From: an uncultured Planctomycetales bacterium
GTDB taxonomy: Bacteria > Omnitrophota > Gorgyraeia > Zapsychrales > JAHFFX01
Assembly: GCA_964612665.1 (NCBI GenBank)
Contig: CAZTCI010000001.1
Coordinates: 712,624-776,623, forward strand
DNA: 64,000 bases
Direction of reading: 5' to 3'
A program made the position numbers and the translations under genes. The notes beneath the pieces were generated by a model. It ran no database searches, was not told the DNA's origin, and was given only the letters and a program-made list of their open reading frames with translations. This document shows positions 6,001 to 45,047 of this stretch, piece after piece. Each line of letters opens with the position of its first letter. Position 1 is the stretch's first letter.

Positions 6001-9000
6001 TGAAAGTTAGGAAGATCATAGGCGGATTTAATACGGACATACGGCATGTTGGGCCGACGATTGGATTCTTTAACGCTCTTCCAAATTTGATTTGCATTAT
6101 CGACAAACTGCAGATCAAATTGGCTCATGTGAACGAGCTGATCGACATAGCCAAGATAATTAACCAGTCCAGGAGTGTAGCCAGTCAAATTATATTCGGA
6201 TGTGTACTCGCCTTTTTCATCGGGGATAAATTTAGATCCGGTAAACCAGCCGCCGAGGGAATTCTGGGTAAAATTCATCCCGACAAAATTGCCGCCTAAA
6301 ATCTGAAATTGATTGACGGGCGCATAGAGAATCGTTTCTAAATTAGAGGCAGTGAAATCGCCTCCGTTAGTAAAGATCACATTATTATTGATGGGCGCTC
6401 GAAAATAATTAGAGTTACTTTCATCGACTGTCTTCCATTCAATCTTACTCACATCGACTGCCTCAGTATTGCCGGGCATATTAGCTTCGTCTCCCGTTGC
6501 CGTTGATGCGCCAACCGCGGCACCGCCTACAAACAAACCTGAAACCAGAAAAGCCAGTGCGCGGAATTCAGTCGGAGAAAGTTTAGAATGATACGGACTC
6601 ATGTGCGTGTCTTTCTTGTCAACGAGTTGCTTTTCAAGAAGACTCATAAAACCATAAATGGTTGCATTAACTGCGCCGGCCTTGAGCGCTTCCCAAACTT
6701 TATCACCCAGTTGAGCCGAGGGAATACCTCCGCTCCACACACCGTAAGCAAAGGCGCCGGTGGTGGAGCCGGCTTGCTGTAAAATCTGCGCCGCAGCACT
6801 GTCTGCTTTCAAACCGAAAGCACCGACGGCCGCGGCGGTAACAATAGCTCCGATACTCTGACTGGCTAAAAGTGGCAACTGAGTTTGAATAACAAGATAT
6901 AAAGCATCTGAAACAGATTCCGGAGCAAAATTTGGATTGCTATTATAGTTTTCCACAACAGATTGATGATAAGCGGCTGCTTTGATCGCTTGTTGTTCTT
7001 GCGGACTAAGAACTTTTCCATTGCTTTGGGCTTGAAGAGCATCTTGAGCATCTTGGTTGGCTTTATTGGCGAGCTCATGATTCTCCATGCCAAACTCCGC
7101 CCCGAATTTAGTGCCAGCATAATTATCTAAAAATGCAACTCCCCAAGTAAGGGCAACGTTGCTTGCAAAACTACTTAAGCCAGGAACCAAAAACTGTTTG
7201 AGAGATTTTGCGACTTCGCTGTTTTTATCGCCAAATATTTCATCGACGAGATTAAACACTCCAAACTCGACCAAACCTTTAACCTCACCAAGAACAAAAC
7301 CTTTAGCAAATTCTTTTCCAAAACCTGTTAAGACTTGACCAAGGGTCAAAGCAGGAAAAGATTTAGGCACGGCATAAGTTAAAACGCCATAACCATTCGG
7401 GATATTAGGGGGGGCTGTTTTCCGAACAAATGCTCCTCCTTCGGCAGTTAGCTTTTTTGCAGTAGCTTCACTCGTTTCAGATGCTACTTGGAACTGTTGA
7501 TCTTGCGTTGCGTCTTTAGCTAAATCCTTACTTAATGCTTGTTCCGATTGGTTACTTTGCTCTCCAGGATTCAAAGGCCCACCGCCAGGTTTGATCGTGT
7601 TCGCTGCTGCCGTCGTAGGAACATCCACCGGAGTCCAGGAACCGCCCCACAATTTAACTAATTTATCCATGGCCCAATTCAAAACTCTTACTAAAGGCGC
7701 ATAAACATACGCCGTCAATAAATTTTTAACCATCGTCCAGGCTGTTGCCAAACTCTTTCCAATTGACTGCAACATGCCGCTAAGAGTGACATTACCAACG
7801 CCAATGTTTCCTAGCGAAGTGATGCTGGTTTTGAGCATATCAGTTAACCAGTCCCCGAGTATACGGCGTGACAGGCTTTCCAAACCTGCTAAAAATCCTT
7901 GACTCGAGGCGGCTGCAGAGCTCAAGTTAACAGAATCAAGACTAGCGGCCCAATTCATTCCTGCCGACAACGCCGCACTCAACCCAACATTCAACAAAAA
8001 CCCAGTCGTCCCGTTACAAGCGCCTTTCATCTGGCAAATCGTGGTCAAAGTTTCCGCAAGCGCGGAGGCGCTCATCGCAATCACCCATGCCGCTTGAAAA
8101 GTTAAATTTGACCCAAAACCCATCATGCCAGCCACGTTTCCACCCACAGCCAGCATCGCCGTCTGCATCGCCACATTAATCGCAATGTCGCCCAAACTCA
8201 TTAAGCCCGGCAAATCTTTATAATGGCTGTGCCAAATAGATCCCCAAACAAAAGTCTGCATGGTCTCATCAACCGGCTCGTAAGCAATATTTTGTTTGTC
8301 CAAATCTTCCGCCAAAACAAAACCGGTTGATTGCTTAACAAAATCATCACGGCTCAGCATCATCGCATCGCCGGTGTCTGAAAAATAGACGTTCTTGTCA
8401 TCAATCTTGGTGATCATGACAAAATGCTCATTGCTGAAGTTAGCAATAAACGGAGGCTTAAGCGTTAGGATGTCTTGAGGATTTAGTTTCGCGGCCTGAG
8501 CTTTTAGGCCGTAGGCTTGCGCAACTTTGTTGATTGCAAAAAGAGAGGTTTTAAGTTTGGGTTGACCGGCTTCGATAACGTTGTTCGCAAAGTCAGCACT
8601 GAGTGTTAAAACAGAAATCTGTTCCAACGGTAAATTAATTTGATGCACATAAAGCCAATCGCGTAACGCATAGACACCGCAGTTTAATGGGTGAATATTA
8701 GGATCACGCAACCAATTGTCAATCCGTTGTATAGAATCGGAATTAAAAGATTTGGCTAACGTCAGATTGAGAGTGTACTTACTATTTTCGGATGCGCCTG
8801 TAATTGAATCAGGAATTCTTAACGCGACTTGCGTATTTTCTTGCTTGGGAAGCTGTTTTAAAAGATGTGTGAGCTCAATGGCAACTTTGGCTGTTGCAAC
8901 TGCTTGAGCTGAAAGCCCGCCATCTTCCGGGTCAACCGTGGTTTGAATATTGCGGGCGCTATTTGGATATAAAACATCAGGCCGATAGCTAAAAGACATT

Positions 9001-9236
9001 GCGGCTTCTTGCGGAATAAACGTAATCAAAACAATGGCGGCAACAACGCGAACCCAGAGTTTGATTCGGCTTATAAACGGTTTTCGGGAAAACGCAGAAT
9101 TGGCAGGATCTAATTGGGTGTCGGAAGAAAAAAAAGGACTATCTTGATTAATAATATTATTATTTATATTAGTAATCAAAGTTTCACTGTTTTCCTGAAC
9201 TTCAGAAGGTTTTTGAATGTCCATTCTGTTATTCAT
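1..9236 (-). CDS. giant (>3078 aa, 3' end beyond window) membrane-anchored surface protein: N-terminal TM helix + papain-like C39-like peptidase domain, Ala/Gly-rich hydrophobic region, then long G/N/S/T-rich beta-type region
   Basis: ATG at 9236 (seen as cat on the plus strand). Translating the minus strand gives MNNRMDIQKPSEV...RIKLWVRVVAAIVLITFIPQ (TM helix). It continues ...DNWLRDPNIHPLNCGVYALRDWL...NFSNEHFVMITKIDDKNVYFSDTGD. The Cys-Gly, His and Asp (16 residues after the His) have the same spacing as in the bacteriocin-processing C39 domains. No minus-strand stop in this frame through 9.2 kb: all minus-strand ORFs listed in the track for 1-9236 are in a different frame, and the track has no long ORF here because the reading frame never closes inside the window. 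Confidence 0.6.
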   Translation of the reverse strand, partial: MNNRMDIQKPSEVQENSETLITNINNNIINQDSPFFSSDTQLDPANSAFSRKPFISRIKLWVRVVAAIVLITFIPQEAAMSFSYRPDVLYPNSARNIQTTVDPEDGGLSAQAVATAKVAIELTHLLKQLPKQENTQVALRIPDSITGASENSKYTLNLTLAKSFNSDSIQRIDNWLRDPNIHPLNCGVYALRDWLYVHQINLPLEQISVLTLSADFANNVIEAGQPKLKTSLFAINKVAQAYGLKAQAAKLNPQDILTLKPPFIANFSNEHFVMITKIDDKNVYFSDTGDAMMLSRDDFVKQSTGFVLAEDLDKQNIAYEPVDETMQTFVWGSIWHSHYKDLPGLMSLGDIAINVAMQTAMLAVGGNVAGMMGFGSNLTFQAAWVIAMSASALAETLTTICQMKGACNGTTGFLLNVGLSAALSAGMNWAASLDSVNLSSAAASSQGFLAGLESLSRRILGDWLTDMLKTSITSLGNIGVGNVTLSGMLQSIGKSLATAWTMVKNLLTAYVYAPLVRVLNWAMDKLVKLWGGSWTPVDVPTTAAANTIKPGGGPLNPGEQSNQSEQALSKDLAKDATQDQQFQVASETSEATAKKLTAEGGAFVRKTAPPNIPNGYGVLTYAVPKSFPALTLGQVLTGFGKEFAKGFVLGEVKGLVEFGVFNLVDEIFGDKNSEVAKSLKQFLVPGLSSFASNVALTWGVAFLDNYAGTKFGAEFGMENHELANKANQDAQDALQAQSNGKVLSPQEQQAIKAAAYHQSVVENYNSNPNFAPESVSDALYLVIQTQLPLLASQSIGAIVTAAAVGAFGLKADSAAAQILQQAGSTTGAFAYGVWSGGIPSAQLGDKVWEALKAGAVNATIYGFMSLLEKQLVDKKDTHMSPYHSKLSPTEFRALAFLVSGLFVGGAAVGASTATGDEANMPGNTEAVDVSKIEWKTVDESNSNYFRAPINNNVIFTNGGDFTASNLETILYAPVNQFQILGGNFVGMNFTQNSLGGWFTGSKFIPDEKGEYTSEYNLTGYTPGLVNYLGYVDQLVHMSQFDLQFVDNANQIWKSVKESNRRPNMPYVRIKSAYDLPNFQPDTPVTKKKLQEEYLQQLFTVINPGTGPMKYLTDVSLPAGNVTNVRTALEYGLTPLIDVTRWGMTARRLGWIPSYDGKKWRVAWATNVGPDGSKMTAVNLVGLRYLLGTKNVLGNVAEDKNGNEVWNLSLFNGKAGNAGDFAKLGMDLAKVGVQVYLSPAQAKELAGLLIQLRPGSGSDKQAVLNRLQQKYNATPEDLEKISSKELDKLINKLQSISASGPALVNLPTVLVSPDGQPFKDNGGIIPTVQSIMGSSPVLTGTVSPDLIRSIINNGGEFNFWFKAANTQALPVLGSPFLGALLGQSQTTNALTVAYKGSSTRSLLSQQVFDINGQQNGGVQNLTRMIGEARQTTPQYVTMVLNQSTNEPLEETKVKFLMDKAGLARADAEKEAANVQVKDDWMLSGTEMVPFEKLVYKTEELAHDIHFNRTIGFNNDNLGPQFDFSVDRYSLPGGQTIGLIATGNYFAQAGALAQVKALRNIFGQINPGEENPQEAKVVNAAMSPAAAGLALTSSGVAKLFAQGDGINTTVSFLAQEGDSNGKIYFQENTSNRGLAVTKEDGKKENILDSTFFYYMPQPNGNTNVVWNKETWLPLQSKNATKVALEQSDKNSDEAENVFNTLNLTNNFPGEGLATQWLGTTVGPEQINKQSNITGKMFSALFINDQKVLGGYAKAGEAETSGGKKSSTLELKVDDRGKLEGYTFNPVLVYDSEDKNPEANSLFFARSMGGSQGGKIPDVAMEVMFGYFAPGIGSLAPELFSINLAKPEDFMELPGGEVIFGNGSKLYIDDQHWGYNPLKEPLYGRKEELKSEKGIKYITLRKDKSEEGKDILKTDIDPGIYFSNVNVIYTSGNKETLVKKDGQVIEDKTKAALTKVAMAMNYSQDKTVLRWTGHTYVAGHYNGKGEFVASEKGDDIFHNAQGTIESSTPEELANSVLTHIGLEQGDSVPVQKVKAEIFGGTSGEKGIPILFGHGSEIVDRNIDRITAQPYLEKLAEGEKPTELSLANNSTSSLEGVTRRGEAAGYSSDADVTTRHLTLEENLKQETVNKKEGGLYGEGEKQSQTQEVGIDATGSNVELQPIKSQKGNIWDVGFIAQGDFRYAFLAGALLNLFGNIEDGAKITIGEGFAGHDVQLLRHSLSVLSPGETFGGTNVFTFKAGTVLSKENPIPWTSFSQIGTYRYGAHLNKNGKFATDISRIIGYKITGPGIWDGNKILAGAGAASSDAKRVVLNNGVISLNNPLAVGPEEFSGLDINGWFGFARGFNQKEQGKFTGVKIGKEGELTLLGQGSLYMPSGITLKGQHKIDETQEGSESSGGGAVPVEGGTHAILLKGKGNIDLLMANPSDGAAATKLINQFGAPLSPNLNILFHPSLQGTLPLPLSTPGTVLFVKSGDLNEGKTLPISTSNAILSADGKTTLSLVAKDRNVFVDQNGGIVFVTAGGGLGLYGNWGSYFTGKREGTASVNWQGKEVKGNISVTEGGKEFSVRNTDGTSTLIPDAAQSTAKGILKTFDASNHPAILQIAGIDNVYSSAARTKADLLPQYAYYGTKGSVYNPDFMSSNKEENKNEAGGKVPIPGKPNNFTFVENVDSANNSLISVNGGAQRIAFAVTDANNILNSTAVSPGAHFEQAGGRVPILRTLEFIGAPKPVNIETASTSEDLTGMNPSPQPEAVQTVQITKIYDVGNDGKVVGSSMAIADDGRQLEGVVVKSYQRDGSNRSIDVFAQNGDSFYLKGLQLKPGTTIMMGDTVISPEDMIVHATIGKDENGQLAPLLDRNHASAMLPDRPVSENGVLLADVDNPKVLHFYPDQTHIDKAEKVLIGENGQPIHPSELAADMGPQQKVAAIMYIPGTVINGELKQDAELKEGSIVLLNKENGAPQTIESFAKNLGLQNPQVTMTAEADKGQVAVVKSSDGQTLVINLGDQTYHQASTSFPLYVNRTDLAPSGEKIVNTFEINGKDDSLKYLTIRDAKDNVIKSGTISDLANIKTASGESNAYANIISG

Positions 9237-9921: not shown

Positions 9922-10806
9922 CTATTGTTTAGTCAGCTGGGCGAGAGGATTATTTTCAACGAAATCGAGGAATATTGGGCCCGCCACCAAGATACCTACA
10001 ACTGGGAAGATAAAAAACAAAAGTGGGACAAGCATTTTAAGAGGCGCTTTCATGGCCAACTGTTCCCCACGGCGAAAACGGGCTAGCCGCATGTCTTCCG
10101 ATAAAATATTTAAAGCTTCAGCGACCGAGGTTCCCATCTTGTCCGCCTGGATTAACGTTCTGGCCAGCGTTGAAAGATCCGGGAGGTCATACTTTACCGC
10201 CAAATCTTTAATGGCATCACGCCGCGCTTTACCGAGATTAATTTCTTGCATGACAGTATTAAACTCGCGAATAATAACAGATGGCGGCGATTTTTCAACA
10301 ACCCATTTCATTGCCAACATAAAGTCCAGCCCGGCATTAACACAAAGGCGGAGCAAATCAATCGCATCAGGCAATTCTTTTATAATGGCGCTTTTAATCT
10401 TTTTAATTTTACCTTTGAGCCAAAACTCCGGAGCCATATATGCGATTCCGAAACAGCAGGCCAGCCAAATAATAAACATCTGCGGACTTACCATATTAAA
10501 GGTCAGAATAATAAAAAAAACAAAAACCAATTCCTTGACCAAAAAATATTCTTCAGGCGTCATGTTGACATGAGCGATTTCCAAATCTTTCAGCATTCTG
10601 ACCCGAACCGGCCCCATTGTAAAAGGCTTATTAATAAGGGCGAGCTTTCTAATAAAAGAAAGAATCGATCTTTTTCTTTTTAAAGCCCCGACCTCAAAGC
10701 CCGTAAACCCCTGCAACCGCGGCCGGCTTTCCCACTCTATCGGCGAGACGCCCAGTATAAAACTAAACACCGAGATAAATACCATCATAGAAAAAACTGT
10801 AATCAT
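9922..10806 (-). CDS. tadC: Flp pilus assembly inner-membrane platform protein, TadC/TadB family (T2SS F domain)
   Basis: 294 aa, multiple TM segments; GspF/TadB-C-like cytoplasmic domain (…AIIKELPDAIDLLRLCVNAGLDF…); adjacent to second T2SSF paralog. Confidence 0.75.
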   Translation of the reverse strand: MITVFSMMVFISVFSFILGVSPIEWESRPRLQGFTGFEVGALKRKRSILSFIRKLALINKPFTMGPVRVRMLKDLEIAHVNMTPEEYFLVKELVFVFFIILTFNMVSPQMFIIWLACCFGIAYMAPEFWLKGKIKKIKSAIIKELPDAIDLLRLCVNAGLDFMLAMKWVVEKSPPSVIIREFNTVMQEINLGKARRDAIKDLAVKYDLPDLSTLARTLIQADKMGTSVAEALNILSEDMRLARFRRGEQLAMKAPLKMLVPLLFFIFPVVGILVAGPIFLDFVENNPLAQLTKQ

Positions 10807-10818
10807 ATTTTCCTCACT

Positions 10819-11682
10819 TTAAAAATTCTTAAAGGTGCTGATCTTCCAAATAAAAAAAGCACCGATGATTTCTGAAAAAAAGGAATAAATCAACATCGCC
10901 CGGCCCAAAGACGACTTCATCATATGGATTAAAAAATCCGGTTTTGTCGACTGAACAATAATAAGAAATCCTATCGGCAAACAGGACATGACAATGCCTT
11001 GAATTTTTCCCTGCAATGTCAATGTATCGATATTTTGCTGGATTTTTTTATTTTCGCGAATGGTGTTTACGATGCGCGTAAAAATTGCCGGCAGATTGCC
11101 TCCCGTTTCGCGCGCCAAAAGAATCGCCGTAATGGTTTGCTGAAGTGCCGGCGAAGGCATTCTTTTATATAAATGATTGAATGCCTCGTCGAGAGCCACT
11201 CCCATTTTATTTTCACTTAAAACCATGCCGAATTCCTGATCAATCGGCTCCGGCATTTCCTCGACGACCGCTTCCATCGCTTGAACCAAACTCAATCCAC
11301 CTCGAAACGAACTCGACATAATCATGAGTGCGTCGACCAGTTGATTGGCAAATTTTTCTTTTCGTTTGCTGATCAGCATTTTGGCATAAAAACCGGGCAA
11401 TATAAAACCAATCATAAAAAGAGCAATGACACCTATGAGCCGGATAGCCGGTGGAAAAACTATAAAACCGATAATGGCCCCAATGACAGGCGCCAACAAT
11501 GAAGCGCCCGTCATTTTTTTGGAATCGGGTTTCATTAACATCCGTTCCATCTTAGTCGCAAATGTAGGGGCTGCGCGCCTTTCACCAATCACAACAGCAC
11601 GATTCGCAAAAAGGGGCATGGCCGTATAGCCCAAAATAAATACTGAAAGGAATATAAAAAAGAGGAGTATTGGAATGGCCAT
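10819..11682 (-). CDS. tadB: Flp pilus assembly inner-membrane platform protein, TadB/TadC family (T2SS F domain)
   Basis: 287 aa; TM helices plus T2SSF-like domain (…FANQLVDALMIMSSSFRGGLSLVQAME…). Confidence 0.75.
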   Translation of the reverse strand: MAIPILLFFIFLSVFILGYTAMPLFANRAVVIGERRAAPTFATKMERMLMKPDSKKMTGASLLAPVIGAIIGFIVFPPAIRLIGVIALFMIGFILPGFYAKMLISKRKEKFANQLVDALMIMSSSFRGGLSLVQAMEAVVEEMPEPIDQEFGMVLSENKMGVALDEAFNHLYKRMPSPALQQTITAILLARETGGNLPAIFTRIVNTIRENKKIQQNIDTLTLQGKIQGIVMSCLPIGFLIIVQSTKPDFLIHMMKSSLGRAMLIYSFFSEIIGAFFIWKISTFKNF

Positions 11683-11727: not shown

Positions 11728-12048
11728 TCAATTATCGCACTCACTCCGACGACAACCGCTAATGCTGCTTTTGATACAACCTACATTCGATAATGAAATA
11801 CAATTAAAGTTGTCTGCGCACTTTGAATCGTACCAGACGTTAAAAAATTGCGGATCGAATTTACATTCGATTGTTTGTTTAGGATCATATTGCCGGCCCG
11901 AACCAAAAGCATCACCCACAGACCGCCAGTGTCCGGCGATTCCCCGGAAAATATATTTCTGAAAAAAAATCAAAGCGCCAATGACAAAAAGAAGCATTAC
12001 TATGTACTCCATGGTAGAAACGGCTTTGTTGTTGGAATATTTTTTCAT
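11728..12048 (-). CDS. Flp-type pilin-like protein with Cys-rich C-terminal extension
   Basis: KAVSTMEYIVMLLFVIGALIF matches the class III/Flp leader (A/G-XXXX-EY then hydrophobic helix). It shares the RGIxGxWRS..D..G.QYDP motif with the other pilin paralogs; C-terminus has 8 Cys. Confidence 0.6.
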   Translation of the reverse strand: MKKYSNNKAVSTMEYIVMLLFVIGALIFFQKYIFRGIAGHWRSVGDAFGSGRQYDPKQTIECKFDPQFFNVWYDSKCADNFNCISLSNVGCIKSSISGCRRSECDN

Positions 12049-12084: not shown

Positions 12085-12347
12085 CAAATCTCAAATGTCA
12101 AAATCCAAATCAATTCCAAATTTTTTAATCCCAAACTGCTCTGACTTCTTTGTATTTCGGATAATACTACTTAAAATCAACAACAACTCTGTACTTTCAA
12201 TGATTAACCAAACCAACTCATTCTTATGTAATTCTTCCTTTCGGCAAAATTAAAGGCCCTATCATAGATGTTGAATTTTCTATTGCTTGACATTGGAAAT
12301 TTAATGATTTATTTGTCATTTGACATTTGGTTTTTGTCATTAATTAA
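12085..12347. repeat. intergenic repeat element copy 1 (26-mer caaatctcaaatgtcaaaatccaaat ... 27-mer tgacatttggtttttgtcattaattaa, with ~180-bp insert between); putative promoter/operator
   Basis: Exact 26-mer at 12085-12110 and 27-mer at 12321-12347 are both repeated at 17655-17680 and 17710-17736. TGACA-N10-TGTCA inverted half-sites. Lies just upstream of the pilin gene 11728..12048. Confidence 0.7.
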
Positions 12348-14797
12348 AACGGCGCATAATCACAGCTCACAAATTTTAAACTAAACCCGCGCTGAGTCCG
12401 GTCAGGACCTGAACCACCTGAACCATTGTGAAAGAAATATTCCGCGCACGTACGGCTCATAACCCCGTGCTCAAGGATGGCATTAACATAATCCCAACAC
12501 GCCGGGGAATCAGTGCGGCGGTTAATCATAAAAGCCTCAGGTGCTTCTTTACTGATGACATCTTTACATACAACATCCAGAGTATTTGGGCTAGGAATAG
12601 ATGATGTAACGGACGGATGTCTAAATTTATACCGCCACACATCCAGCCCCGTCGGTAATTTAATGGTTGTGTCTTTATCTTCGTCCCAGCGGATGACTTG
12701 GGATTTAACAGTTGCGCCAAGGAAACACTTCCGGGCGTTCGAATAATCGTCGGAAGAATCACAACCCCCATAAAGATGAAAGGCATCGCCGAGAGAATAA
12801 CAGCGCATCAAACCCCACATCGTCGTATACGTTTTTATCTTGGCGAGTTTTGGTTCTTTTATTGTTAAGCTCGCGTTATCCGCTTGGTAACAACGGCCGT
12901 TACACCGTCCAGGAATACGTCCGTCAACCCGCACGATATGCCATTTGGCCGAAGATTTAGAAGGATTGGTCGCCGGCGTTTTCCAGGCATAAATGGCTTC
13001 ATTAGGTAAAGGAACCAAGGCCAAATCTTCAATGCGCAGACGTTCTTTACGCAACGCCTCGCCCGCGTTAATGATGTCCGTAAAATGCGACATCGCGCTC
13101 GTGAAGAAATCTCTTAGATATTTAACTTCATTCTCGCGGGCCGCGAGAAAATTCCGTCGGCGTTGAAGTTTTGCCTGCTGATTGACACTTTCATTACCGC
13201 TTTGTACAAGTTTAGGCTGCCAGAATGCGGCGTAATTATTGCCGTCTCCCGCCGCGACGCTTGATGTTCCTCCGACGACAGGATCGGTAAAAGTATTTAA
13301 GCAGCTTCCCTTAGCTAACTTCCAGGATGCCACCGCCGCATTATAAAGAGGATTCCCTGGTCCCCATGTGCCGCACACGCCGGCATTGATGGTATAGGCC
13401 GCGGAACATGTGGCTGTTAGTCCTGAAAGATTAAGAACATTAAGATCGCAGACAATCGATTCGGTTGGCGTAAAAGTTGTTGGTCCTCCGACGGGCGGCA
13501 AGGTTCCCTGACCGATGACCGTTCCAGAAGAGTTATAACATTTATAATCCAAAGAGTTGTCCGCATCTCCAGTACTGTTCCATGAAAAGGAAGTTGGCGA
13601 ATTCGCTGGTCCTTGGCCTGGAACAAACGTTGCCGTACACGACGGACACGGACCGCAATCCCCCGGACAGTTTTTACATGTTTCCGTAAATTGCGACCAT
13701 CCTGTCTTTTCGCAGACACCGTTACCGCAAACAGGGCACGCTCCGCAATCTTGGGCACAGGTTGAACAGTCTTCATTGGCGTCGCATGTACCGTTGCCGC
13801 AGTAAGGACATCCTGCCGGATCAGCCACGCATTGTGTCATTACGTCACAAGCGTTTGGACAGCTTCTTGTTTGCAACCGTGTTCCCAGCGGACAGCCGCC
13901 TGTGCTACAAACAGGATCGCTCACCCACGACGAGCAAATACAACAATCTGGATTATCGAGAAGGCATTGTGTTGTTGCCGAACAATTATAGGTGCAGCTT
14001 CTCGTCTGGTACATATAGTTCCCAAGACAGCCCCCAGCACCGCAGCCGGCATTAGCGAAAGCGGTGCAGGAATCACCCAAACACTGCAATTGCGTCTGGC
14101 AGTTGGCAGGAATACAAGTCCGCGTCTGGCTCATTTGATCAGCAGGACAACCATTGCCGCAGCCACTATTAGCAAAATTACTACAATCGCAGGGAGGATT
14201 AATATTGGCGTAAATTCCGGTATACACATTATTGTAATTAGGACCATTATTAGTGAGCGTTAATCCGATTAATACCGTTATGCCTCCAGTCCCTCCCATG
14301 GACCATCCGTTAATTAGGGGAGCGCACTCAATTATCCATCCGCTTGTTAAACAGCCGGTATCAGTTTTTGATTGTACCCCCGTCGCTATCTGCCCGGCAG
14401 GACACGTAAGGTTGATATAACTAGAACCGGTGGGGCTCATACAGCGATTACAATTCGGTTGATTACCATTAGGAACAGCCACAAACTGGCTACCGCCACC
14501 ACACGTACCTGAGCTGGCGCCTATTCCGACGATACCATTAAAAGCGGTAACAATAGGTGTGCACGGGGCAACTATGTTGTCTGCTCTATTATCGCTACTA
14601 AAGGAGGTTATGGCTTGGTTCACTGGACACGACGAGGAAGAGTCAGCAAAAGCTTTCGAGACAGAAAGCATTAAACAAAGGGAGAAAATACTTCCAACAC
14701 TAAATAAAATCTTCGCCGAGAAAGACCGCATCAGCCCAAATTGTTTATTTCTTTTGAAATGAAACATATGTCCTTTATAAATTTTGATAAGCTTCAC
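12344..14797 (-). CDS. secreted cysteine-rich protein (817 aa) with tandem ~40-aa Cys modules; putative pilus-associated adhesin/tip protein
   Basis: N-terminal signal peptide (…SLCLMLSVSKAFA). Three tandem modules GCGxGxC…QTRxC…NC…TQC, then CGNGxC-type repeats. No recognisable enzyme motifs. Confidence 0.55.
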   Translation of the reverse strand: MKLIKIYKGHMFHFKRNKQFGLMRSFSAKILFSVGSIFSLCLMLSVSKAFADSSSSCPVNQAITSFSSDNRADNIVAPCTPIVTAFNGIVGIGASSGTCGGGSQFVAVPNGNQPNCNRCMSPTGSSYINLTCPAGQIATGVQSKTDTGCLTSGWIIECAPLINGWSMGGTGGITVLIGLTLTNNGPNYNNVYTGIYANINPPCDCSNFANSGCGNGCPADQMSQTRTCIPANCQTQLQCLGDSCTAFANAGCGAGGCLGNYMYQTRSCTYNCSATTQCLLDNPDCCICSSWVSDPVCSTGGCPLGTRLQTRSCPNACDVMTQCVADPAGCPYCGNGTCDANEDCSTCAQDCGACPVCGNGVCEKTGWSQFTETCKNCPGDCGPCPSCTATFVPGQGPANSPTSFSWNSTGDADNSLDYKCYNSSGTVIGQGTLPPVGGPTTFTPTESIVCDLNVLNLSGLTATCSAAYTINAGVCGTWGPGNPLYNAAVASWKLAKGSCLNTFTDPVVGGTSSVAAGDGNNYAAFWQPKLVQSGNESVNQQAKLQRRRNFLAARENEVKYLRDFFTSAMSHFTDIINAGEALRKERLRIEDLALVPLPNEAIYAWKTPATNPSKSSAKWHIVRVDGRIPGRCNGRCYQADNASLTIKEPKLAKIKTYTTMWGLMRCYSLGDAFHLYGGCDSSDDYSNARKCFLGATVKSQVIRWDEDKDTTIKLPTGLDVWRYKFRHPSVTSSIPSPNTLDVVCKDVISKEAPEAFMINRRTDSPACWDYVNAILEHGVMSRTCAEYFFHNGSGGSGPDRTQRGFSLKFVSCDYAPF

Positions 14798-14825
14798 GTC
14801 TTCAATTTTCTCGAAACGCTAACCC

Positions 14826-17657
14826 TCAAAACGTCTGCACAATATTGACCTGACAACTTGAACCGCCCAATCCATTTGACACGATAATCGTTTTAATTCC
14901 AGGAGTGGAATACGTCGTCGTAAAAGTAGCCGTCCCGGTCCCGCTTACCGGAGAAGCACCTCCGGCTGCATACCATTTATTAAAGGCCGGACCAAGACCT
15001 CCAGCCGCGGATACAGTCACGGTCACTGGACCGTTAAAAGCAAATGCTTGTGTCGCGGGCGAACACACAACGCCAGAACCACCCGGATTAATAACGCCCT
15101 GCGTCGGATAACATCCAACAAGTGGTCCACTTGGTCCCTGCCATGGCGTCGGACAGGTCGGTAAACTCGAACACTTTGTACAATCTCTTAAGCAAGCATC
15201 AAATGCACCAACATCCGGATCCCGGGGCACAACGAAATAATTTGTATCAAAAGGTGAAACCGGATCATTGATTAAAAGCGAGCGTGGCAGATCCGCACAG
15301 TTGCTCTCCCTGCATTTATCTGTAGCCGTACCAATTTGTCCGACGTCGGCAGATGCCGTACCGCATATGCCAAATTTAGGAAGGTTGGTTATGTTGTAAT
15401 CTAAACAGGCAAGAATATTATCTAAAGTTCCCGTGCCCATGACTGCTGATTCCGGTGCTTTCATACCCGCACACATTCCCGGCGGAGTTCCAACGTTTCG
15501 GGTCGGCCAGGTTGTTTGAATGCCGACTGTATTATTAGGAATGCACAACGCTTGATTACAATCCGTTCCTTTAAAAGTAAGGGTCAACCAATAATTCAAT
15601 TTGTCGATCCAGGCTTGATGCTGATCGCGCCAAACAAGCATCTGGCCATTTTGATCGTTATAGAATTGATCAACGTTGCCTTGGGCAACGAGAAACTGCG
15701 CCGCGGTCGGATACCATTCTCTAAATGTGGTACGCAGCGTCATCATGTCCATATTGATTAACTGCGTGGCAAATTTTATAAAATCTTCTACCCCGTAAAC
15801 AAAATCATCAAACGGATCGTCCGGCCACATAGACGGCGGACCCGCTCCCAGCTGGCCGCACATACAGGGCCCTCGTGTTCCGTCGGGAAACGTGCAAGTT
15901 GTTCCGTATTTGGCGCAGGTCGCGGCGTAAGGCCACACGGTCGAACAATAGCGGTCAGCGCCTCGTTTCCATTTTCCGTTAGTAAACGGCGCCACATAAT
16001 CCTGGCCGCAGGTTGTTGCATATTGCATGGGCGCAACGAGAAGATCTTTTGTCGGGTCAGGTAAATTATAAAGAGATTTGACCATGTCTGGCCGCAGAAT
16101 TTTCTTGGAAGTGTCAACGGGGTTGGTGTTATCAAAGATACAGGGGCCTCCATTATATAATCCCGGCGCTGTAGGAAGCGTAAACTGAGGCGCAATTTCA
16201 ACCGCCAATGAACCTGGTAAAGTTAATATCGGATTAATGTTTCCGCATCGAGGATGGGACGGGTCGCAGATATTACATTCATACCGCCGATTTTTATCCG
16301 TCGAATCGAGCAAGAGACCACCTAAGTCCATTCCCCAATCCAATAGTTTATAAAAAATCGGATAAACATACTTCACCTCGCCGGGGGCAGCGAGATCACG
16401 CGTATCATCAAAACGAAACAGCGGTTGCTCCGGATCACTGCTTTGCGCCGCCGAATACATCTTAGAAGGCACATACATATTACGCGCAGGCTGCATTCGG
16501 AAATATTGATTCTCGTCGTCCTTGCCAAAAAGTTCAAGATATGAAAATCTGTTGTTAGAACTGTCTTCAAAAACAGAATTATAAACGTAAGGATAAGAAG
16601 AGCCATAGGGGGACGTCGCCGCACAATGGGCGGCGCCTGAATAGCCGCAGCGGACGGTAGGGTCTGGATCGTCGCAGCATTCTGGCACTGTAGAAAACGC
16701 AAGGCAGGAGCTCGAACTGGCGCAGCCCGTCGTCGGGTCAGGATCATCACAACACGCCGGGCGGCGCGGATCGATTTGGTTTTTATCAACACAACAGGGA
16801 TTACATTCCGCCGGCGGATCATTACTGCAACAAACATGCGCCGGATTTAAACTACAATCAACCGGGTCCCAAAGAAAATTAAGATAACCTTTAAGTGCAT
16901 CAATAAATGCTTGGATCGCGGCCTCGTCGGGTAATGACTGCTGCATCGATTCAAGCCGCTTAGTATAATAAAATCCAAACCGGCTGACCTGGTCGCCGCC
17001 GTTAACTTTGGTTCCAGAAGCAGTAACATAAGCACCATCTAAATCCATGTCGTGAAGATCGTCAATTTGTCCGGGATCTGTGACAACATTTTGTAAAGCG
17101 GCTAAGATTCCCCGCTCCAAAAATCCATCGGTTTTGGGCATGTTTGCGAACATTTTATTCCAAATTGAAGTTAAGCCTGGCTGGACAACTGTTATTTGCA
17201 AAGCCAATGCGGCTGTGGCGACGGCAAGAGCAAGAACGGCGAGCGTTTGAGACATTATAGCAATTAATTCATATTGCTGAAGAACCACAATAACAGCTAT
17301 TGCAACTACAATAATTAATATTTGCAAGACTCCGGTAAACCCACAGATCGTCAAATCACTTCCCGCGCCTTTTTCTCCGCCGAGCTGAGTTTGATAAAGT
17401 TGTTCCGTGTAACTGGCATAACTGGATGCCATCAATGCGGCGCTGGCGTTAGAAGCGACGGCTGTCAGAGTTTTTAATTCAGCGGATTTTCCAAAATTGA
17501 GAGATATCGCAAAAAAGATAATGCTGATGGCGGAGAGAAGAATCAAAATGAGGGCGACTTGGCCGTTGTTCTGCGAAGTCGAACGCGTGGATTTTCGAGA
17601 ATGAATTAATTTTTTAAGGAACCTAAGCACTCTAGATCCTCGAGAGGTTAATGACAA
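14826..17657 (-). CDS. membrane-anchored cysteine-rich protein (943 aa) with pseudopilin-like N-terminal hydrophobic segment and CCDDPDPT repeats
   Basis: Track ORF starts at a TTG inside the repeat element, so the true start is probably downstream. N-term …NNGQVALILILLSAISIIFFAISL, a second TM, then Cys-rich ectodomain. 28 bp upstream of the 817-aa gene, so probably co-transcribed. Confidence 0.5.
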   Translation of the reverse strand: MSLTSRGSRVLRFLKKLIHSRKSTRSTSQNNGQVALILILLSAISIIFFAISLNFGKSAELKTLTAVASNASAALMASSYASYTEQLYQTQLGGEKGAGSDLTICGFTGVLQILIIVVAIAVIVVLQQYELIAIMSQTLAVLALAVATAALALQITVVQPGLTSIWNKMFANMPKTDGFLERGILAALQNVVTDPGQIDDLHDMDLDGAYVTASGTKVNGGDQVSRFGFYYTKRLESMQQSLPDEAAIQAFIDALKGYLNFLWDPVDCSLNPAHVCCSNDPPAECNPCCVDKNQIDPRRPACCDDPDPTTGCASSSSCLAFSTVPECCDDPDPTVRCGYSGAAHCAATSPYGSSYPYVYNSVFEDSSNNRFSYLELFGKDDENQYFRMQPARNMYVPSKMYSAAQSSDPEQPLFRFDDTRDLAAPGEVKYVYPIFYKLLDWGMDLGGLLLDSTDKNRRYECNICDPSHPRCGNINPILTLPGSLAVEIAPQFTLPTAPGLYNGGPCIFDNTNPVDTSKKILRPDMVKSLYNLPDPTKDLLVAPMQYATTCGQDYVAPFTNGKWKRGADRYCSTVWPYAATCAKYGTTCTFPDGTRGPCMCGQLGAGPPSMWPDDPFDDFVYGVEDFIKFATQLINMDMMTLRTTFREWYPTAAQFLVAQGNVDQFYNDQNGQMLVWRDQHQAWIDKLNYWLTLTFKGTDCNQALCIPNNTVGIQTTWPTRNVGTPPGMCAGMKAPESAVMGTGTLDNILACLDYNITNLPKFGICGTASADVGQIGTATDKCRESNCADLPRSLLINDPVSPFDTNYFVVPRDPDVGAFDACLRDCTKCSSLPTCPTPWQGPSGPLVGCYPTQGVINPGGSGVVCSPATQAFAFNGPVTVTVSAAGGLGPAFNKWYAAGGASPVSGTGTATFTTTYSTPGIKTIIVSNGLGGSSCQVNIVQTF

Positions 17658-17848: not shown

Positions 17849-18118
17849 TTACCAATTATTAAACACCAAATTCATCTTTGTGCCCCGATAAAAATCGCCG
17901 TCTAACTGATTGATCGGGCTGTTTGTATCTAAGCCTTGCCAGCTCTCCGAAACAGGCTTAATCAAAGACTTCTCATGCGCATCCCGACGGTAAACAAGGT
18001 CCAGCGCTGACCATCGAAAAGCCTTAAGGCAGGCATAGCCGAGCAATAAAGCAATGATGATGCAAAATGTAAATTCGAGAGTCACCTGCGCTTTTTCTTT
18101 GAACATCTTGTTGTCCAT
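17849..18118 (-). CDS. TadE-like pseudopilin (about 90 aa)
   Basis: Internal Met gives MDNKMFKEKAQVTLEFTFCIIIALLLGYA (A/QVTLEF + hydrophobic helix). Track ORF 17849..18235 has an implausible upstream extension overlapping the next gene. Confidence 0.5.
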   Translation of the reverse strand: MDNKMFKEKAQVTLEFTFCIIIALLLGYACLKAFRWSALDLVYRRDAHEKSLIKPVSESWQGLDTNSPINQLDGDFYRGTKMNLVFNNW

Positions 18119-18149: not shown

Positions 18150-18662
18150 TTAACGGTAACGGTTATCGGTTTTTTCAAAATTACTCCATGCCTCAGCCAA
18201 TTTATAAATCTGGCGACCAGATTTATCGTAAGCATCTATCAATTCATCGCAAAGTTTTATATCTACATTCTGTGGATAAATATCTCTACTTTGACTCAAA
18301 CTTACAATCATTTCATTAGATTCAGCCATTGCATCATCGAGATATTTTTGAAAGCCAGCTTTTTGATGCCGCTTTGCATATCCTTCAGCTATTAACCGCG
18401 GAATTGCTTTGGAAGCTCGGCGGAGCTGATCTATTATTGGCCTTTTCCTTTCCAAAGAAAGGTTGTTCTTTTCGTCATCGAAGAGAAAAGGCCTAATATT
18501 GAGTTTTGTTGCATCCTTTGGATTTACAAAACTCAATAAATCATCTTCTTCGCATTTTGGCAGACAGGGAAGAATCTTTTGCATAACAGTGGTCATTGAT
18601 TTATAACTATCTTGATAAACTGTTAAATCTCTAAAGCTGGTAATTCGCTTCTTTTCTTCCAT
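18150..18662 (-). CDS. four-helix-bundle protein (23S rRNA intervening-sequence protein / bAvd-like family)
   Basis: SFRDLTVYQDSYK … DQLRRASKAIPRLIAEGYAKRHQKAGFQKYLDDAMAESNEMIVSL matches the conserved QLrRAavSIpaNIAEGygR…F…A.GS..E core of this family. Confidence 0.65.
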   Translation of the reverse strand: MEEKKRITSFRDLTVYQDSYKSMTTVMQKILPCLPKCEEDDLLSFVNPKDATKLNIRPFLFDDEKNNLSLERKRPIIDQLRRASKAIPRLIAEGYAKRHQKAGFQKYLDDAMAESNEMIVSLSQSRDIYPQNVDIKLCDELIDAYDKSGRQIYKLAEAWSNFEKTDNRYR

Positions 18663-18733: not shown

Positions 18734-20119
18734 TCAATATCCCCGCGGGCCGAGATCTTGGACCCATTTACGCCCGCGGCCTTCCCAAACCCGGCTTCGA
18801 ACATACAAGGTTAAAGAGCCTTCGTCAAAACAAGTTTTATAAACATTGGCCGCTGAAAAACAATTGGCCGTGGGATCACTCCCCAGTCCCGGGGGCACAC
18901 ACACCTCCACGTCGGGATTCCACTGAGTATTAGGCTGATGAACCGGCGCGTCCCAAACCGCGCCACTCCCAGTGCCGCAAACAAATCCGGTATTTCTACT
19001 TAACTGAACAACCCGTTGAACGATGTCTGTAATATTTCTTCTTTGCGTACTTTTAACATTTTGAGTGGCACTAATAATTTTTCCTTCTTCAATTTGAAGG
19101 TACGTTCCATCTCTAGTGTAAGTCCATCCTTGAGTGCCTTCACTTGAAAAACCAGGCGCGGCGCCGGGACTTTTACGGTTATGGGTCATATCCAAATCGC
19201 CTTCTTGAAAATCCAAAACACGCAATAATTTAATAGGAACATTGCCTGAACCTGATTTGTTTTTGCTGTTGGGCGTATATCTTTTGCCCTTTATATCAAC
19301 CATTTCCAAAATTTGTTCTTCCTTTAAATCGTTGTCAACGTCAAGCGAGGCATTCTGGCCTGTCTGCAAATTAATTGAGCTCGTCGTGGCTTTCACCATC
19401 TGCCATTGCCACGTAAAAAGAGGACGGTCGGCGGGTGAAACAATCGTCGTGCCGTCGCGGTAAAGGTCAAAGCAAGTCAGACACGTGTTCCACTTACAAC
19501 GATCGCAGGCATTGGGATCCCAGGCGGTATTCACCTTTAAATTCGGACTAATAGAATACAGGGCCATACAGCCATTCCCTTTCCCATTGCAATCGGGAAT
19601 CCAATTGGGGTCTGTGTCATTTTGTATGTTGTATTCTTTAAAAGCTGCTGTTGTAAATTGAAAATGTAAGCCGTTAATAAAAAAATCGGTGCGGGGAAGA
19701 CTATCGTATTCACCATAGTCAATGGGCATGAAAAGATTTTTAGAAAATGTGGCTGAAGCTCCGACGATAAACGGCGAACGCGATTGGACACCGAATTTAC
19801 TCTCTTCAGCGCTTAAACGGTCTTCAACGATGAGGACACTGGCAATATTGCGCGAGGCGTTGCCGGGTTTTTTAGACATGCGGTTTTTTCCGGTTTCGGC
19901 GGCCCGCAGAGACGTGGCCATAGCCATACGCATCGCTTTCAATGATTCACTTTGCGAAGTTCCAGCACTTAATGCATAACGAATCATCATGCCTAACATA
20001 AAAATCAAAACAGCTCCAAAAACGGCGAGTTCAGTTGACGTTTGAGCTTTTGAGTAAATGCTCTTGAACAACTTAATATCCCCCAATAATTGTATCTCCC
20101 GTCTTCGTTTCGAGGGCAT
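18734..20119 (-). CDS. large TadE/TadG-like pseudopilin-family protein (about 445-461 aa), Cys-containing ectodomain
   Basis: N-term …LFKSIYSKAQTSTELAVFGAVLIFMLGMMI resembles the pilin leaders. Track start overlaps upstream pilin gene by 47 nt, so the real start may be an internal non-ATG codon. Confidence 0.5.
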   Translation of the reverse strand: MPSKRRREIQLLGDIKLFKSIYSKAQTSTELAVFGAVLIFMLGMMIRYALSAGTSQSESLKAMRMAMATSLRAAETGKNRMSKKPGNASRNIASVLIVEDRLSAEESKFGVQSRSPFIVGASATFSKNLFMPIDYGEYDSLPRTDFFINGLHFQFTTAAFKEYNIQNDTDPNWIPDCNGKGNGCMALYSISPNLKVNTAWDPNACDRCKWNTCLTCFDLYRDGTTIVSPADRPLFTWQWQMVKATTSSINLQTGQNASLDVDNDLKEEQILEMVDIKGKRYTPNSKNKSGSGNVPIKLLRVLDFQEGDLDMTHNRKSPGAAPGFSSEGTQGWTYTRDGTYLQIEEGKIISATQNVKSTQRRNITDIVQRVVQLSRNTGFVCGTGSGAVWDAPVHQPNTQWNPDVEVCVPPGLGSDPTANCFSAANVYKTCFDEGSLTLYVRSRVWEGRGRKWVQDLGPRGY

Positions 20120-20387
20120 CAGATCTGTCGACGCGGTTGGTCCAGACTCCGTTCAGCGTCGTGTCATTAACCGCAACAATTTGCATTTCTTCATTGGCAA
20201 CACGGCTATAGTTAATAATGGTATTTGAAACGCGCGGATCGTATTGGTCTCCTAAATCATCAACTGTACTTCGCCACCGTCCGGAGATGCCTCGTTTCAT
20301 ATAATTGCTCATCGCAATAAAAGCACCAATGATGACCATTATCAAAACCGTGTATTCAATCGTCGATTGTCCTTTGCGTTTAAACAT
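20073..20387 (-). CDS. Flp-type pilin paralog G (104 aa)
   Basis: MFKRKGQSTIEYTVLIMVIIGAF… (G/QSTI-EY); KRGISGRWRSTVDDLGDQYDP family motif. Confidence 0.7.
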   Translation of the reverse strand: MFKRKGQSTIEYTVLIMVIIGAFIAMSNYMKRGISGRWRSTVDDLGDQYDPRVSNTIINYSRVANEEMQIVAVNDTTLNGVWTNRVDRSDALETKTGDTIIGGY

Positions 20388-20423
20388 TGAATCCTCTTTT
20401 ATTTGAAAAGAATAAAAACAAAT

Positions 20424-20837
20424 TTAATTATCCGCATTAATGGTGTTTGAAAAACCTAAATTTGAAACTGAATTGGATATAACATCGCCGGAATCATTGT
20501 AAATAAAATCAATGGCGCCGGAATTTTCTTTCCGGCTTTTATTTGTATTAGACCTCGTCGCTGAATAGGCCTGCATCAAATAGCCGCCGTAAGGCACGAT
20601 CCGCTGGTCAGATTCATTTTGTATGCCAACCTGATCAGCCGTGACCTTAATAACACTTTGAATACCGCGCTTACAAGCGTTAAACATCGCAAACAAAACC
20701 ATGGTCACAATTCCAATTAAAAGCATGTACTCCATCATGCTCTGAGCGGTTTTATTTTTTAAGAAATATAGACGGGTGGACTCGGAAGAAGCCGCCGTTT
20801 CCGTCAATAAGAATTTTTTTTTATCGACAAATTTCAT
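20424..20837 (-). CDS. Flp-type pilin paralog F (start uncertain, up to 137 aa)
   Basis: …KNKTAQSMMEYMLLIGIVTMVLFAMF (A/QSMM-EY); CKRGIQS… motif; start codon overlaps stop of paralog E (TAATG). Confidence 0.55.
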   Translation of the reverse strand: MKFVDKKKFLLTETAASSESTRLYFLKNKTAQSMMEYMLLIGIVTMVLFAMFNACKRGIQSVIKVTADQVGIQNESDQRIVPYGGYLMQAYSATRSNTNKSRKENSGAIDFIYNDSGDVISNSVSNLGFSNTINADN

Positions 20838-21226
20838 TAATTACCGCCCGTCAAATTGAAGTCTCTCGGCGGCAATTGATTACTATCAGTGGTGACTCTA
20901 ACTTGGTCCGTAAATTTGTCGCCGAAGATACCTGTTGTGCCGCCACCTTGGAGCGTTTGAACGGAATTCATTAAACTATCGACATTGCTTTGTGTCTGCA
21001 CGTAGTAAGGTTCATACTCCTGTAAAATTACATTACCAAGTGTGGCCGTATTGCTTGTGGCAATGCTGTGAATCATATAATTCCGGGCATCCCAAATCCG
21101 TCCCTGCAAAGATCTTTTTACATAAACCGACATCGCCGAAATAACTGCAATCACTAAGAAAAAAGTGATCACATATTCTGAGGTTGCCTGTCCCAATTTA
21201 TGCAAAACAATTTTAGAGTGAAACAT
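20837..21226 (-). CDS. Flp-type pilin paralog E (129 aa)
   Basis: …HKLGQATSEYVITFFLVIAVISAM… ; KRSLQGRIWDA…EYEPYY motif. Confidence 0.65.
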   Translation of the reverse strand: MFHSKIVLHKLGQATSEYVITFFLVIAVISAMSVYVKRSLQGRIWDARNYMIHSIATSNTATLGNVILQEYEPYYVQTQSNVDSLMNSVQTLQGGGTTGIFGDKFTDQVRVTTDSNQLPPRDFNLTGGN

Positions 21227-21400
21227 GTCTTGTTGCTATCATTTTTGTAATTATATTTGTAATAAAAACGGCTATGATTCTGGTTTTGCTGAACGTTAAA
21301 AAGTGCTGTCCCAAAAAACATGGCTTACCCCTCGTCGGGTGACGATTGAGTAAGCCATGTTTTTTGATCTATAGAACAACCCAACTCTATTACCGACGAG

Positions 21401-21724: not shown

Positions 21725-21782
21725 TGATTAGTCCTCCTTAAAATTAGACATAAAGTTGCTTGCTTAACAAATGAAGCGGGTA

Positions 21783-44677: not shown

Positions 44678-44815
44678 ATGAAAAAACATTTAAAAACTCC
44701 GTCGAATCTTAAAGGTAAAAGAAATCATGGGTTTAGGCGAAGAATGCGCACTTCTAATGGACGTGCTGTCTTAAGAAATCGCCGCGCTAAGGGGCGGAGA
44801 AAGCTTAGTACATAA
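44678..44815 (+). CDS. rpmH: 50S ribosomal protein L34
   Basis: [45 protein letters not shown]. Confidence 0.9.
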
Positions 44816-44834
44816 ATAGACCTTTCTTGCCGCT

Positions 44835-45041: not shown

Positions 45042-45047
45042 AAAATT

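Follow-up and report, generated by a model that had tools for sequence, protein, structure and literature searches.

Probable fission of a conserved large cysteine-rich gene in a Tad-like locus of an uncultured Omnitrophota bacterium

Introduction

Omnitrophota are ultra-small, uncultured bacteria that are thought to be predators or parasites, and what their genomes reveal of attachment to a host comes mainly from a conserved Tad-like cluster beside giant genes. In the passages of two published accounts that were searched, Tad clusters of Omnitrophota are associated with a predatory or parasitic lifestyle (Seymour et al. 2023, PMC10066038) and a conserved secretion/pilus locus is described upstream of the giant genes (bioRxiv 10.1101/2023.11.21.568195). 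Large proteins of the KilN/TadG type with variable, disulfide-rich distal domains form the tips of Tad pili (Herrou et al. 2025, PMC12075869); the KilN-type tip protein is pilin-like in fold, has a single alpha1N helix and a site for prepilin peptidase, and forms a heterotrimer with KilL and KilM (PMC12075869). A TadZA fusion has been reported for Bdellovibrio (bioRxiv 10.64898/2026.07.08.737194). Here we describe a 64,000-nucleotide stretch, referred to below as the window (contig CAZTCI010000001.1, positions 712,624 to 776,623, assembly GCA_964612665.1), from an uncultured bacterium that is labelled Planctomycetales and is placed within Omnitrophota by GTDB. It contains a Tad-like locus, and our subject is a pair of adjacent open reading frames (ORFs) in that locus, ORF1 and ORF2, which encode large cysteine-rich proteins of 943 and 817 aa.

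A preliminary description of this DNA took the pair for two separate novel proteins. Together, however, they correspond to one gene, which is a single ORF in essentially all relatives, with ORF1 its N-terminal and ORF2 its C-terminal half. We conclude that they very probably represent the fission of one conserved gene of the Omnitrophota Tad-like ('T2SS-like', for type II secretion system) cluster, in which a linker has been expanded and broken and whose halves would reassemble after separate export.

Results

One gene in relatives, two in this genome

ORF1 (14826–17657, minus strand) encodes 943 aa, the N-terminal ~80% of a conserved large cysteine-rich protein of Omnitrophota Tad loci, although public gene calls give 934 aa from a GTG start at 17630. 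ORF2 (12344–14797, minus strand) encodes 817 aa and matches P0001 at 100% identity; its probable start is the ATG at 14767, which gives 807 aa, and the NCBI genome carries an identical 807-aa product. There are 39 cysteines in the 943-aa protein (4.1%) and 58 in the 817-aa protein (7.1%). A 58-nt spacer (14768–14825, minus strand) extends from the TGA of ORF1 to the ATG of ORF2, with an AGGA 3 nt upstream of that ATG, and has the same sequence in two further assemblies. Joining of the ORFs by frameshifting or readthrough is ruled out by their different frames, by a stop directly upstream of the ORF2 frame and by the internal signal peptide. The two ORFs, the signal peptide, the three modules, the CGNGxC repeats and the pair of CCDDPDPT motifs that were first read from this DNA are all where they had been placed. 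Both proteins had also been called giant; they are certainly large, but the giant gene proper is a downstream ORF (window 3–9236 and beyond).

Local BLAST alignments place the two proteins on different parts of the same chain. Residues 8–850 of the 943-aa protein align to residues 6–788 of P0042 (47% identity, E = 0), and residues 460–817 of the 817-aa protein align to residues 884–1245 (43% identity, E = 3e-87). Searches with the 943-aa protein identified eight homologues of 948–1546 aa, and its residues 8–850 match the N-terminal ~800 aa of all eight, with 25–47% identity across all homologues; the C-terminal part of the 817-aa protein matches the C-terminal 300–360 residues of the same eight (8/8, E = 3e-87 to 4e-14). 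Single-chain relatives as a whole span 950–1700 aa. A search of 5.8 billion proteins with the 817-aa protein gave a full-length match only to itself, the remaining matches being short, local and to cysteine repeats.

The single-chain state is all but universal among relatives. Related loci, 39 of them from a scan of one genome per species using a five-sequence alignment, are nearly all in metagenome-assembled genomes labelled Candidatus Omnitrophota, with some labelled Planctomycetales. The window is thus very probably part of an Omnitrophota genome, although its closest relative shares only 47% identity with it in this gene. Both parts are in one ORF in every one of the 40 other loci that hold both parts (40/40, on 36 distinct contigs; L003, L008, L017 and L018 repeat L002, L007 and L005). 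An exhaustive profile search recovered 805 cluster representatives, 377 of them at E ≤ 1e-30, and both parts are in one chain in 147 of 151 representatives examined; the other four have the N-terminal part only, end mid-domain and appear truncated. We refer to this unnamed group of large cysteine-rich proteins of Omnitrophota Tad loci (P0042–P0192) simply as the family. The gene order is also kept across loci: pilin-like genes, a gene of ~450–570 aa, a small gene, the large gene, a small pilin-like gene, tadB, tadC and often a giant gene.

The window pair has the family's N-terminal part (GQ and helix, hairpin, and a body with HPCC..ECNPCC..RPxCC..SPYG), its C-terminal domain (NQ..K...R.DFL, IYGWQD, WHIVKVE.R.PGRC and seven cysteines) and its position in the locus, and departs from it in not being a single polypeptide, with two ORFs in different frames and 58 nt between them. 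Because the halves match single-chain relatives, the relatives have a single ORF (40/40 loci and 147/151 representatives) and the gene order is conserved, we regard this as fission of one orthologous gene; fission rather than fusion is the parsimonious direction. The reading in the preliminary description was that two independent, novel disulfide-rich adhesin or tip proteins simply adjoin in a Tad locus. It agrees with each ORF having its own start, targeting signal and stop and with neither matching a curated family, but each is homologous to one half of the same single chain and only the ~550-aa insert is unique, and we consider such independence highly improbable.

The break and the inserted segment

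In the family alignment, homology ends at about residue 830 of the 943-aa protein and resumes at about residue 491 of the 817-aa protein. The corresponding interval in the family is a hypervariable linker of 0 to 792 aa (median 148) that is often cysteine-rich, and extremely so in P0130 and P0153. Given this range of lengths and frequent cysteine richness, the break falls at a point where insertions are tolerated in the family. The window has in this interval, in order, the 113-aa tail and stop of ORF1, the 58-nt spacer, the signal peptide, a domain of ~150 aa, three cysteine modules, two CGNGxC repeats and a beta-rich segment of ~100 aa. No homologue of this insert is present in any other fetched locus.

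An assembly or binning artefact, in which a foreign fragment was mis-joined into the gene, might be suspected of metagenome-derived sequence, the more so as both short-read contigs end at 18461 beside a probable repeat. The Logan assemblies of SRR12313478 and SRR12313479 match the window at 100% identity along 16.1 kb and 6.7 kb respectively, junction included, so that no base across it differs among three assemblies from at least two runs. Family-homologous sequence lies on both flanks of the insert in the correct order and orientation, the frames are open throughout and the GC content at third codon positions (GC3) is uniform. We therefore give an artefact a negligible likelihood. A foreign origin of the insert was also considered on composition and rejected, the GC3 of the insert being no different from that of the genome, and the genome-like value indicates that the event is not a fresh foreign insertion.

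Pseudogenisation, like artefact, is unlikely. A disrupted gene, with one or both halves non-functional remnants on the way to loss, could be suspected in that the split is essentially unique in the family and a lineage-specific four-helix-bundle gene has been inserted nearby, so that the region has been rearranged. Both ORFs, however, are long and intact and are separated by only 58 nt, the downstream half has a well-formed signal peptide as an exported fragment would need, and all of the conserved cysteines are kept. The two halves are also about equally diverged from P0042 (47% and 43% identity), and the genome-like GC3 of the insert suggests that the event is not recent, yet decay is not visible.

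Organization of the 943-aa protein

The 943-aa protein begins with a basic cytoplasmic tail and a first hydrophobic helix (residues 1–56, ...NNGQVALILILLSAISIIFFAISLNFG; 17490–17657, minus strand), as seen from sequence and hydropathy. The tail has eight K/R and no D/E residues, and the G-Q ahead of the helix is nearly invariant across the family (G18 and Q19 each ≥90%). The helix resembles that of TadG by eye only (GQVAxILIL...A..LN.G). There is no Glu at +5: the sequence after the G reads QVALIL, and departs from the Flp/TadE/TadF prepilin motif, in which G or A precedes the cleavage site and x x x x E Y/F follows it. A hydrophobic hairpin comes next (residues 103–160; 17178–17351, minus strand), with two segments of transmembrane (TM) scale at Kyte-Doolittle peaks 108–126 and 140–158 that were absent from the preliminary description; a hydrophobic block at this place runs through all rows of the family alignment. 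The N-terminal anchor had been described as pseudopilin-like, a term that fits only in part: the Glu5 of the prepilin motif, which all the neighbouring pilin-like genes have, is missing and a TM hairpin follows.

The conserved, presumably periplasmic, cysteine-rich body (residues 161–830; 15168–17177, minus strand) is defined by the family alignment and carries the family's conserved cysteines; nearly all of the ~29 conserved cysteine columns of the N-terminal part are kept in the 943-aa protein. Within the body, the segment CCDDPDPT...CCDDPDPT (residues 302–337; 16647–16754, minus strand) is a duplication inside the family motif RPxCC...C, with copies at residues 302–309 and 327–334, the second copy being in the window sequence only (alignment columns 401–470). 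What had been listed as a repeat is thus a small lineage-specific duplication within the family-wide cysteine motif HPCC..PxECNPCC..RPxCC. The C-terminal tail (residues 831–943, 113 aa; 14829–15167, minus strand) is specific to the window, beta-rich and immunoglobulin-like by composition, and has no homologue in 45 other loci or 151 family representatives and no Pfam match.

Organization of the 817-aa protein

The 817-aa protein starts with a Sec-type signal peptide (residues 11–51; 14645–14767, minus strand) that is predicted by inspection and hydropathy to be cleaved after AFA, with MFHFKRNKQFGLMRSFSAKILFSVGSIFSLCLMLSVSKAFA on one side of the site and D on the other. It has a basic n-region, an h-region of ~17 residues and an AxA site, and the single hydrophobic segment of the N-terminal region is at residues 28–46. 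By inspection and hydropathy, the protein has the features of Sec-dependent secretion, and the signal peptide proposed for it at the outset is borne out by that segment and the AxA site.

The mature protein would begin with a window-specific N-domain (residues 52–202; 14192–14644, minus strand) of ~150 aa, with ten cysteines and two CPxxQ(I/A)xT motifs. It has no homologue among related loci. A Dermatopontin-like identity was considered; the sole Pfam match is a sub-threshold one (E = 0.036, 14.7 bits against a cut-off of 28.3) and is a lead at most. Three tandem six-cysteine modules follow (residues 203–330; 13808–14191, minus strand), with the consensus CxCSNFANxGCGxGGCxxxxMxQTRxCxxxCxxxTQC, and then two CGNGxC(x)nC..C..DCGxCP repeats (residues 331–387; 13637–13807, minus strand), recognized by their similarity to repeat arrays of secreted proteins. 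A beta-rich segment of ~100 aa (residues 388–490; 13328–13636, minus strand) is window-specific; its strands are low-confidence predictions, and it matches nothing in Pfam. Both this segment and the tail of ORF1 are beta-rich, but homology between them was rejected, there being no significant similarity. The last part of the protein (residues 491–817; 12347–13327, minus strand) is the family's conserved C-terminal domain, a long helical hairpin and then a beta scaffold in the model of the homologue P0045, and keeps 7/7 of the conserved cysteines.

The cysteine modules and repeats

The three tandem modules of ~40 aa that had been recognized in the 817-aa protein are confirmed, at residues 203–243, 244–285 and 286–330 (~42 aa each), with 40–53% mutual identity and 12 invariant positions. 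No Pfam, NCBIfam or PDB match was found for them. They resemble the Thrombospondin type 1 repeat (PF00090, TSP_1) in the pattern W..CS..GC..G...QTRxC, but this candidate was rejected: the isolated segment has no Pfam match at E ≤ 10 and a module profile matches no PDB sequence at E ≤ 10. Two metagenome scans, with the 817-aa protein and with the module alignment, gave no confirmed relatives.

The module is not unique to the 817-aa protein. A hidden Markov model (HMM) of it finds three copies in P0041 (JGI metagenome 3300075153) at E = 1e-8 to 1e-9 per copy (e.g. CTCSNFANVACGAGNCSASYMYQTRTCYPAGC...). P0041 is a Laminin_G_3 / PGF-pre-PGF (TIGR04213) surface protein in which the three six-cysteine modules, at residues 450–663, are separated by Thr-rich linkers. 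The PGF-pre-PGF class of proteins belongs to archaea with the PGF-CTERM/archaeosortase system, and from the known distribution of that family we take P0041 to be of archaeal type. Its ~44-aa modules (CxCSNFANxxCGxGxCxxxYMYQTRTCxPxGC...C) are 49–51% identical to the second module of the window protein, although they are set between Thr-rich linkers in a protein with a C-terminal membrane anchor and outside a Tad context. Because three copies also occur in P0041, the six-cysteine module is a real and mobile domain, and it is rare in the sequences searched.

The CGNGxC repeats are of a widespread type, 44–54% identical to arrays in the Sorangium SdrD-B-like proteins P0008 and P0010 (Myxococcota) and in other secreted proteins (P0018, P0024 and P0026). 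They are similar to the CG(N/D)GxC...DCGxC repeats of Myxococcota, and their style is related to DUF4215 and the Myxococcus cysteine-rich repeat; they differ in that the 817-aa protein has two copies only and in the other cysteine spacing of the three modules that precede them. The Myxococcus cysteine-rich repeat and DUF4215 models (PF13948, TIGR02232 and NCBIfam models) are not matched, and the similarity to unmodelled CGxGxC repeats is at the level of BLAST only.

We note that a further cysteine-rich protein is encoded in the locus, a 348-aa protein (31725–32771, minus strand) with 34 cysteines. It had been called pilin-like, in agreement with its Flp/TadE-type prepilin motif (EAQSTLEY). In its first cysteine module (CKCPKEPIGCGLGSC...QKNCTPLDC) the cysteines follow the pattern of the modules in the 817-aa protein. 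Sharing of the module itself was considered and rejected (BLAST E = 0.92, no match to the module HMM).

Fold of the family

The view that neither protein can be assigned to a known family stands. Searches of Pfam, NCBIfam and PDB sequences with the window proteins, their segments, the eight homologues and a 63-sequence profile gave no match. The family has ~36 conserved cysteine columns, ~29 in the N-terminal part and seven in the C-terminal domain. An AlphaFold2 model of P0045, a compact single-chain member, was built from 63 sequences with a predicted local distance difference test score (pLDDT) of 83 and a predicted template modelling score (pTM) of 0.80. It has a 65-residue first helix (H17–81), a low-confidence hairpin and a large irregular body with scattered helices and a pLDDT of ~90; the counterparts of the hairpin (H93–112 and H123–143) have low pLDDT. 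The C-terminal domain is modelled as two helices (H758–810 and H815–828) and strands at 836–1034. A Foldseek search of the model against the PDB found nothing below E = 0.3, and the body thus has no solved structural relative.

Proposed assembly and location

Single-chain relatives consist of a basic cytoplasmic tail, a TadG-like helix, the hairpin, a body of ~650 aa stabilised by ~29 conserved cysteines, the hypervariable linker and the C-terminal domain with seven. In this genome ORF1 keeps the membrane anchor and the body, and would be anchored in the inner membrane with the body outside the cytoplasm. ORF2 has its own Sec signal peptide and ~440 aa of lineage-specific cysteine modules ahead of the conserved C-terminal domain; an export signal would be needed because the C-terminal half must reach the same compartment as in the single chain. 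Once exported by Sec, the ORF2 product would dock through its C-terminal domain on the ORF1 body in the periplasm, as in the single chain, for which the high pTM of P0045 (0.80) suggests a fixed arrangement of the N-terminal part and the C-terminal domain. The module array would be displayed from the site of the hypervariable linker, on a periplasmic or surface-exposed face of the Tad apparatus, and by analogy with the TadG/KilN tips of predatory Tad pili is most plausibly the best candidate for a target-binding element. Assembled in this way, the pair may serve the pilus or secretion machine, encoded beside the giant gene, as a TadG/KilN-like accessory. From the model and the analogy with TadG and KilN, we infer that reassembly in the periplasm as such a Tad accessory is the most likely outcome.

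Several observations weigh against this proposal. The putative contact between the N-terminal part and the C-terminal domain derives from a single quantity, the pTM of the P0045 model, and the AlphaFold2 model of the 817-aa protein alone, from nine sequences, is poor (pLDDT 41.5). The TadG families PF13400 and PF07811 are not matched at E ≤ 1 by the window protein or the eight homologues, which have no vWA domain and no Pfam domain at all. The absence of a Glu5 prepilin motif in the 943-aa protein and its three hydrophobic segments argue against extraction into a pilus fibre and hence against a location at the tip. Finally, no close relative of the genome was found, the best match to this gene having 47% identity.

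It is quite possible, without being the reading that we favour, that the same split gene belongs to a family of inner-membrane-anchored structural or assembly components (e.g. a periplasmic scaffold) and not of pilus tips or adhesins. The three TM-scale segments and the basic cytoplasmic tail would suit such a component, as would the lack of Glu5 when nine of nine neighbouring pilin-like genes have it, and the body sequence is highly conserved, unlike that of typical adhesins. On the other hand, the hypervariable and often cysteine-rich linker, here carrying the module array, resembles a surface-exposed specificity region, the TM hairpin has low model confidence, and the KilN distal domain as described in words (a beta scaffold with two long helices, rich in disulfides and without a PDB relative; PMC12075869) would fit the C-terminal domain. 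The suggestion in the preliminary description that the proteins are disulfide-rich tip or adhesin components thus holds in part. Both are predicted to be exported or membrane-anchored and disulfide-rich, and a tip or adhesin role is reasonable by analogy with TadG and KilN (PMC12075869), but the missing Glu5 and the TM hairpin oppose a location at the tip.

The Tad-like locus and its surroundings

The setting in a Tad/Flp-type locus that had been proposed for the pair is well founded, with both genes inside such a locus and synteny with tadB and tadC kept in related loci. The locus occupies the minus strand from ~32.8 kb to 9.9 kb. It begins with the gene for the 348-aa cysteine-rich pilin-like protein, followed by genes for a Rotamase_2 peptidyl-prolyl isomerase (PPIase), RcpC, a secretin-TonB_C protein and a TadZ-TadA fusion, a 116-aa gene (its orthologues in related loci have a precomputed DUF192 annotation) and a 554-aa gene. 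Five small genes with Flp/TadE motifs come next (e.g. KGQSTIEY), then a 461-aa pilin-like gene, an inserted four-helix-bundle gene and a small pilin-like gene, and the locus ends with the two split ORFs, a small pilin-like gene, tadB and tadC.

The small pilin-like gene upstream of the pair (17849–18106, minus strand; 85 aa as called) has the motif KAQVTLEF and orthologues in 40 loci. The one downstream (11728–12048, minus strand; a 106-aa ORF called as 89 aa) has the motif ...AVSTMEYIVML, and its orthologue is directly after the large gene in 45 loci. The tadB- and tadC-like platform genes (9922–11682, minus strand) have T2SSF domains and orthologues that are 57–70% identical in related loci.

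The prepilin motif G/A-Q-x-T-x-E-Y/F is found at the start of at least nine genes in the locus, the 461-aa and 106-aa genes among them (e.g. 11728–12048, 17849–18106, 18734–20119 and 20073–22139, minus strand), and so many pilin-like genes are unusual for a single Tad locus. We noticed no gene for a prepilin peptidase in the 64-kb window. The secretin gene (27608–29827, minus strand) encodes two C-terminal TonB_C domains and the ATPase (25435–27603, minus strand) is a fusion of a ParA-like TadZ with TadA; both fusions are also present in related Omnitrophota loci. The 554-aa gene (22908–24572, minus strand) has a GC content of 0.34 and a GC3 of 0.30, no Pfam match, and counterparts that are 25–28% identical in 36 related loci. 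The inserted four-helix-bundle gene (18150–18662, minus strand) belongs to the 23S rRNA intervening-sequence protein family (TIGR02436); among 45 related loci, only L012 has a counterpart. The two short-read contigs both stop within this gene, at 18461, as would be expected of a repeated element.

The giant ORF (3–9236, minus strand) is directly downstream of tadC, encodes at least 3078 aa without a stop and runs off the start of the window; on the Logan contig it encodes 3894 aa. It has an N-terminal TM segment, a Peptidase_C39 domain at residues 222–308 and three cysteines only. Related loci also carry a C39 protein or a giant gene after tadC (e.g. L004).

The window spans the chromosomal origin region: the minus strand carries dnaA, dnaN, gyrB and gyrA, and the plus strand yidC, parA and parB. 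The segment between dnaA and yidC (42000–46000) is AT-rich (GC 0.31), the cumulative GC skew turns there, and it is likely to be the replication origin.

Discussion

The large cysteine-rich gene is among the most conserved and largest components of the Omnitrophota cluster (805 cluster representatives). It belongs to no curated family, lacks a solved structural relative and is not singled out in the literature passages searched. It offers a handle on target recognition, with a fixed body and a hypervariable middle that in one lineage is now a separately exported carrier of modules, the module being shared with an archaeal-type surface protein. Annotators would do well to handle these two 'hypothetical proteins' as a single split orthologue. 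A further idea, which we consider rather unlikely, is that the fission made a separately secreted, exchangeable targeting subunit for the Tad apparatus of a nanobacterium living as a predator or parasite, with modules captured from or mimicking surface proteins of hosts or prey and deciding which cells are attacked. If this were true, the broader implication would be that the hypervariable linker of this new-fold family is the determinant of prey specificity in Omnitrophota.

The locus type itself has already been published. The window has the same Rotamase_2 PPIase, RcpC, secretin, GspE/TadA-type ATPase, small genes with class III/Flp-type signals, two GspF/TadB-C genes and giant ORF as the published locus, as far as the searched passages describe it. 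They differ in that those passages (bioRxiv 10.1101/2023.11.21.568195; PMC10066038) do not single out the large cysteine-rich gene or report a split, and the linker, the missing structural relatives and the module shared with P0041 are likewise not mentioned there.

Among characterized proteins the comparison is with TadG and KilN. The family resembles them in being large, in having its gene within a Tad locus, amid minor pilin genes of the TadE/F type, in having a long N-terminal hydrophobic helix (H17–81 in the P0045 model) and many predicted disulfides, and in having a variable region of the kind thought to set target specificity. The likeness to the KilN distal domain, with two long helices, a beta scaffold and no solved structural relative, is to a verbal description only (PMC12075869), and the association of a Tad system having a TadZ-TadA fusion with predators or parasites is shared with KilN and Bdellovibrio (bioRxiv 10.64898/2026.07.08.737194). 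The family departs from TadG and KilN in having no Pfam Tad/TadE match and no Glu5 or obvious prepilin site, in its two extra TM segments and in its much larger conserved cysteine-rich body. Its gene lies before tadB and tadC rather than after them, and in this genome it is split into two polypeptides.

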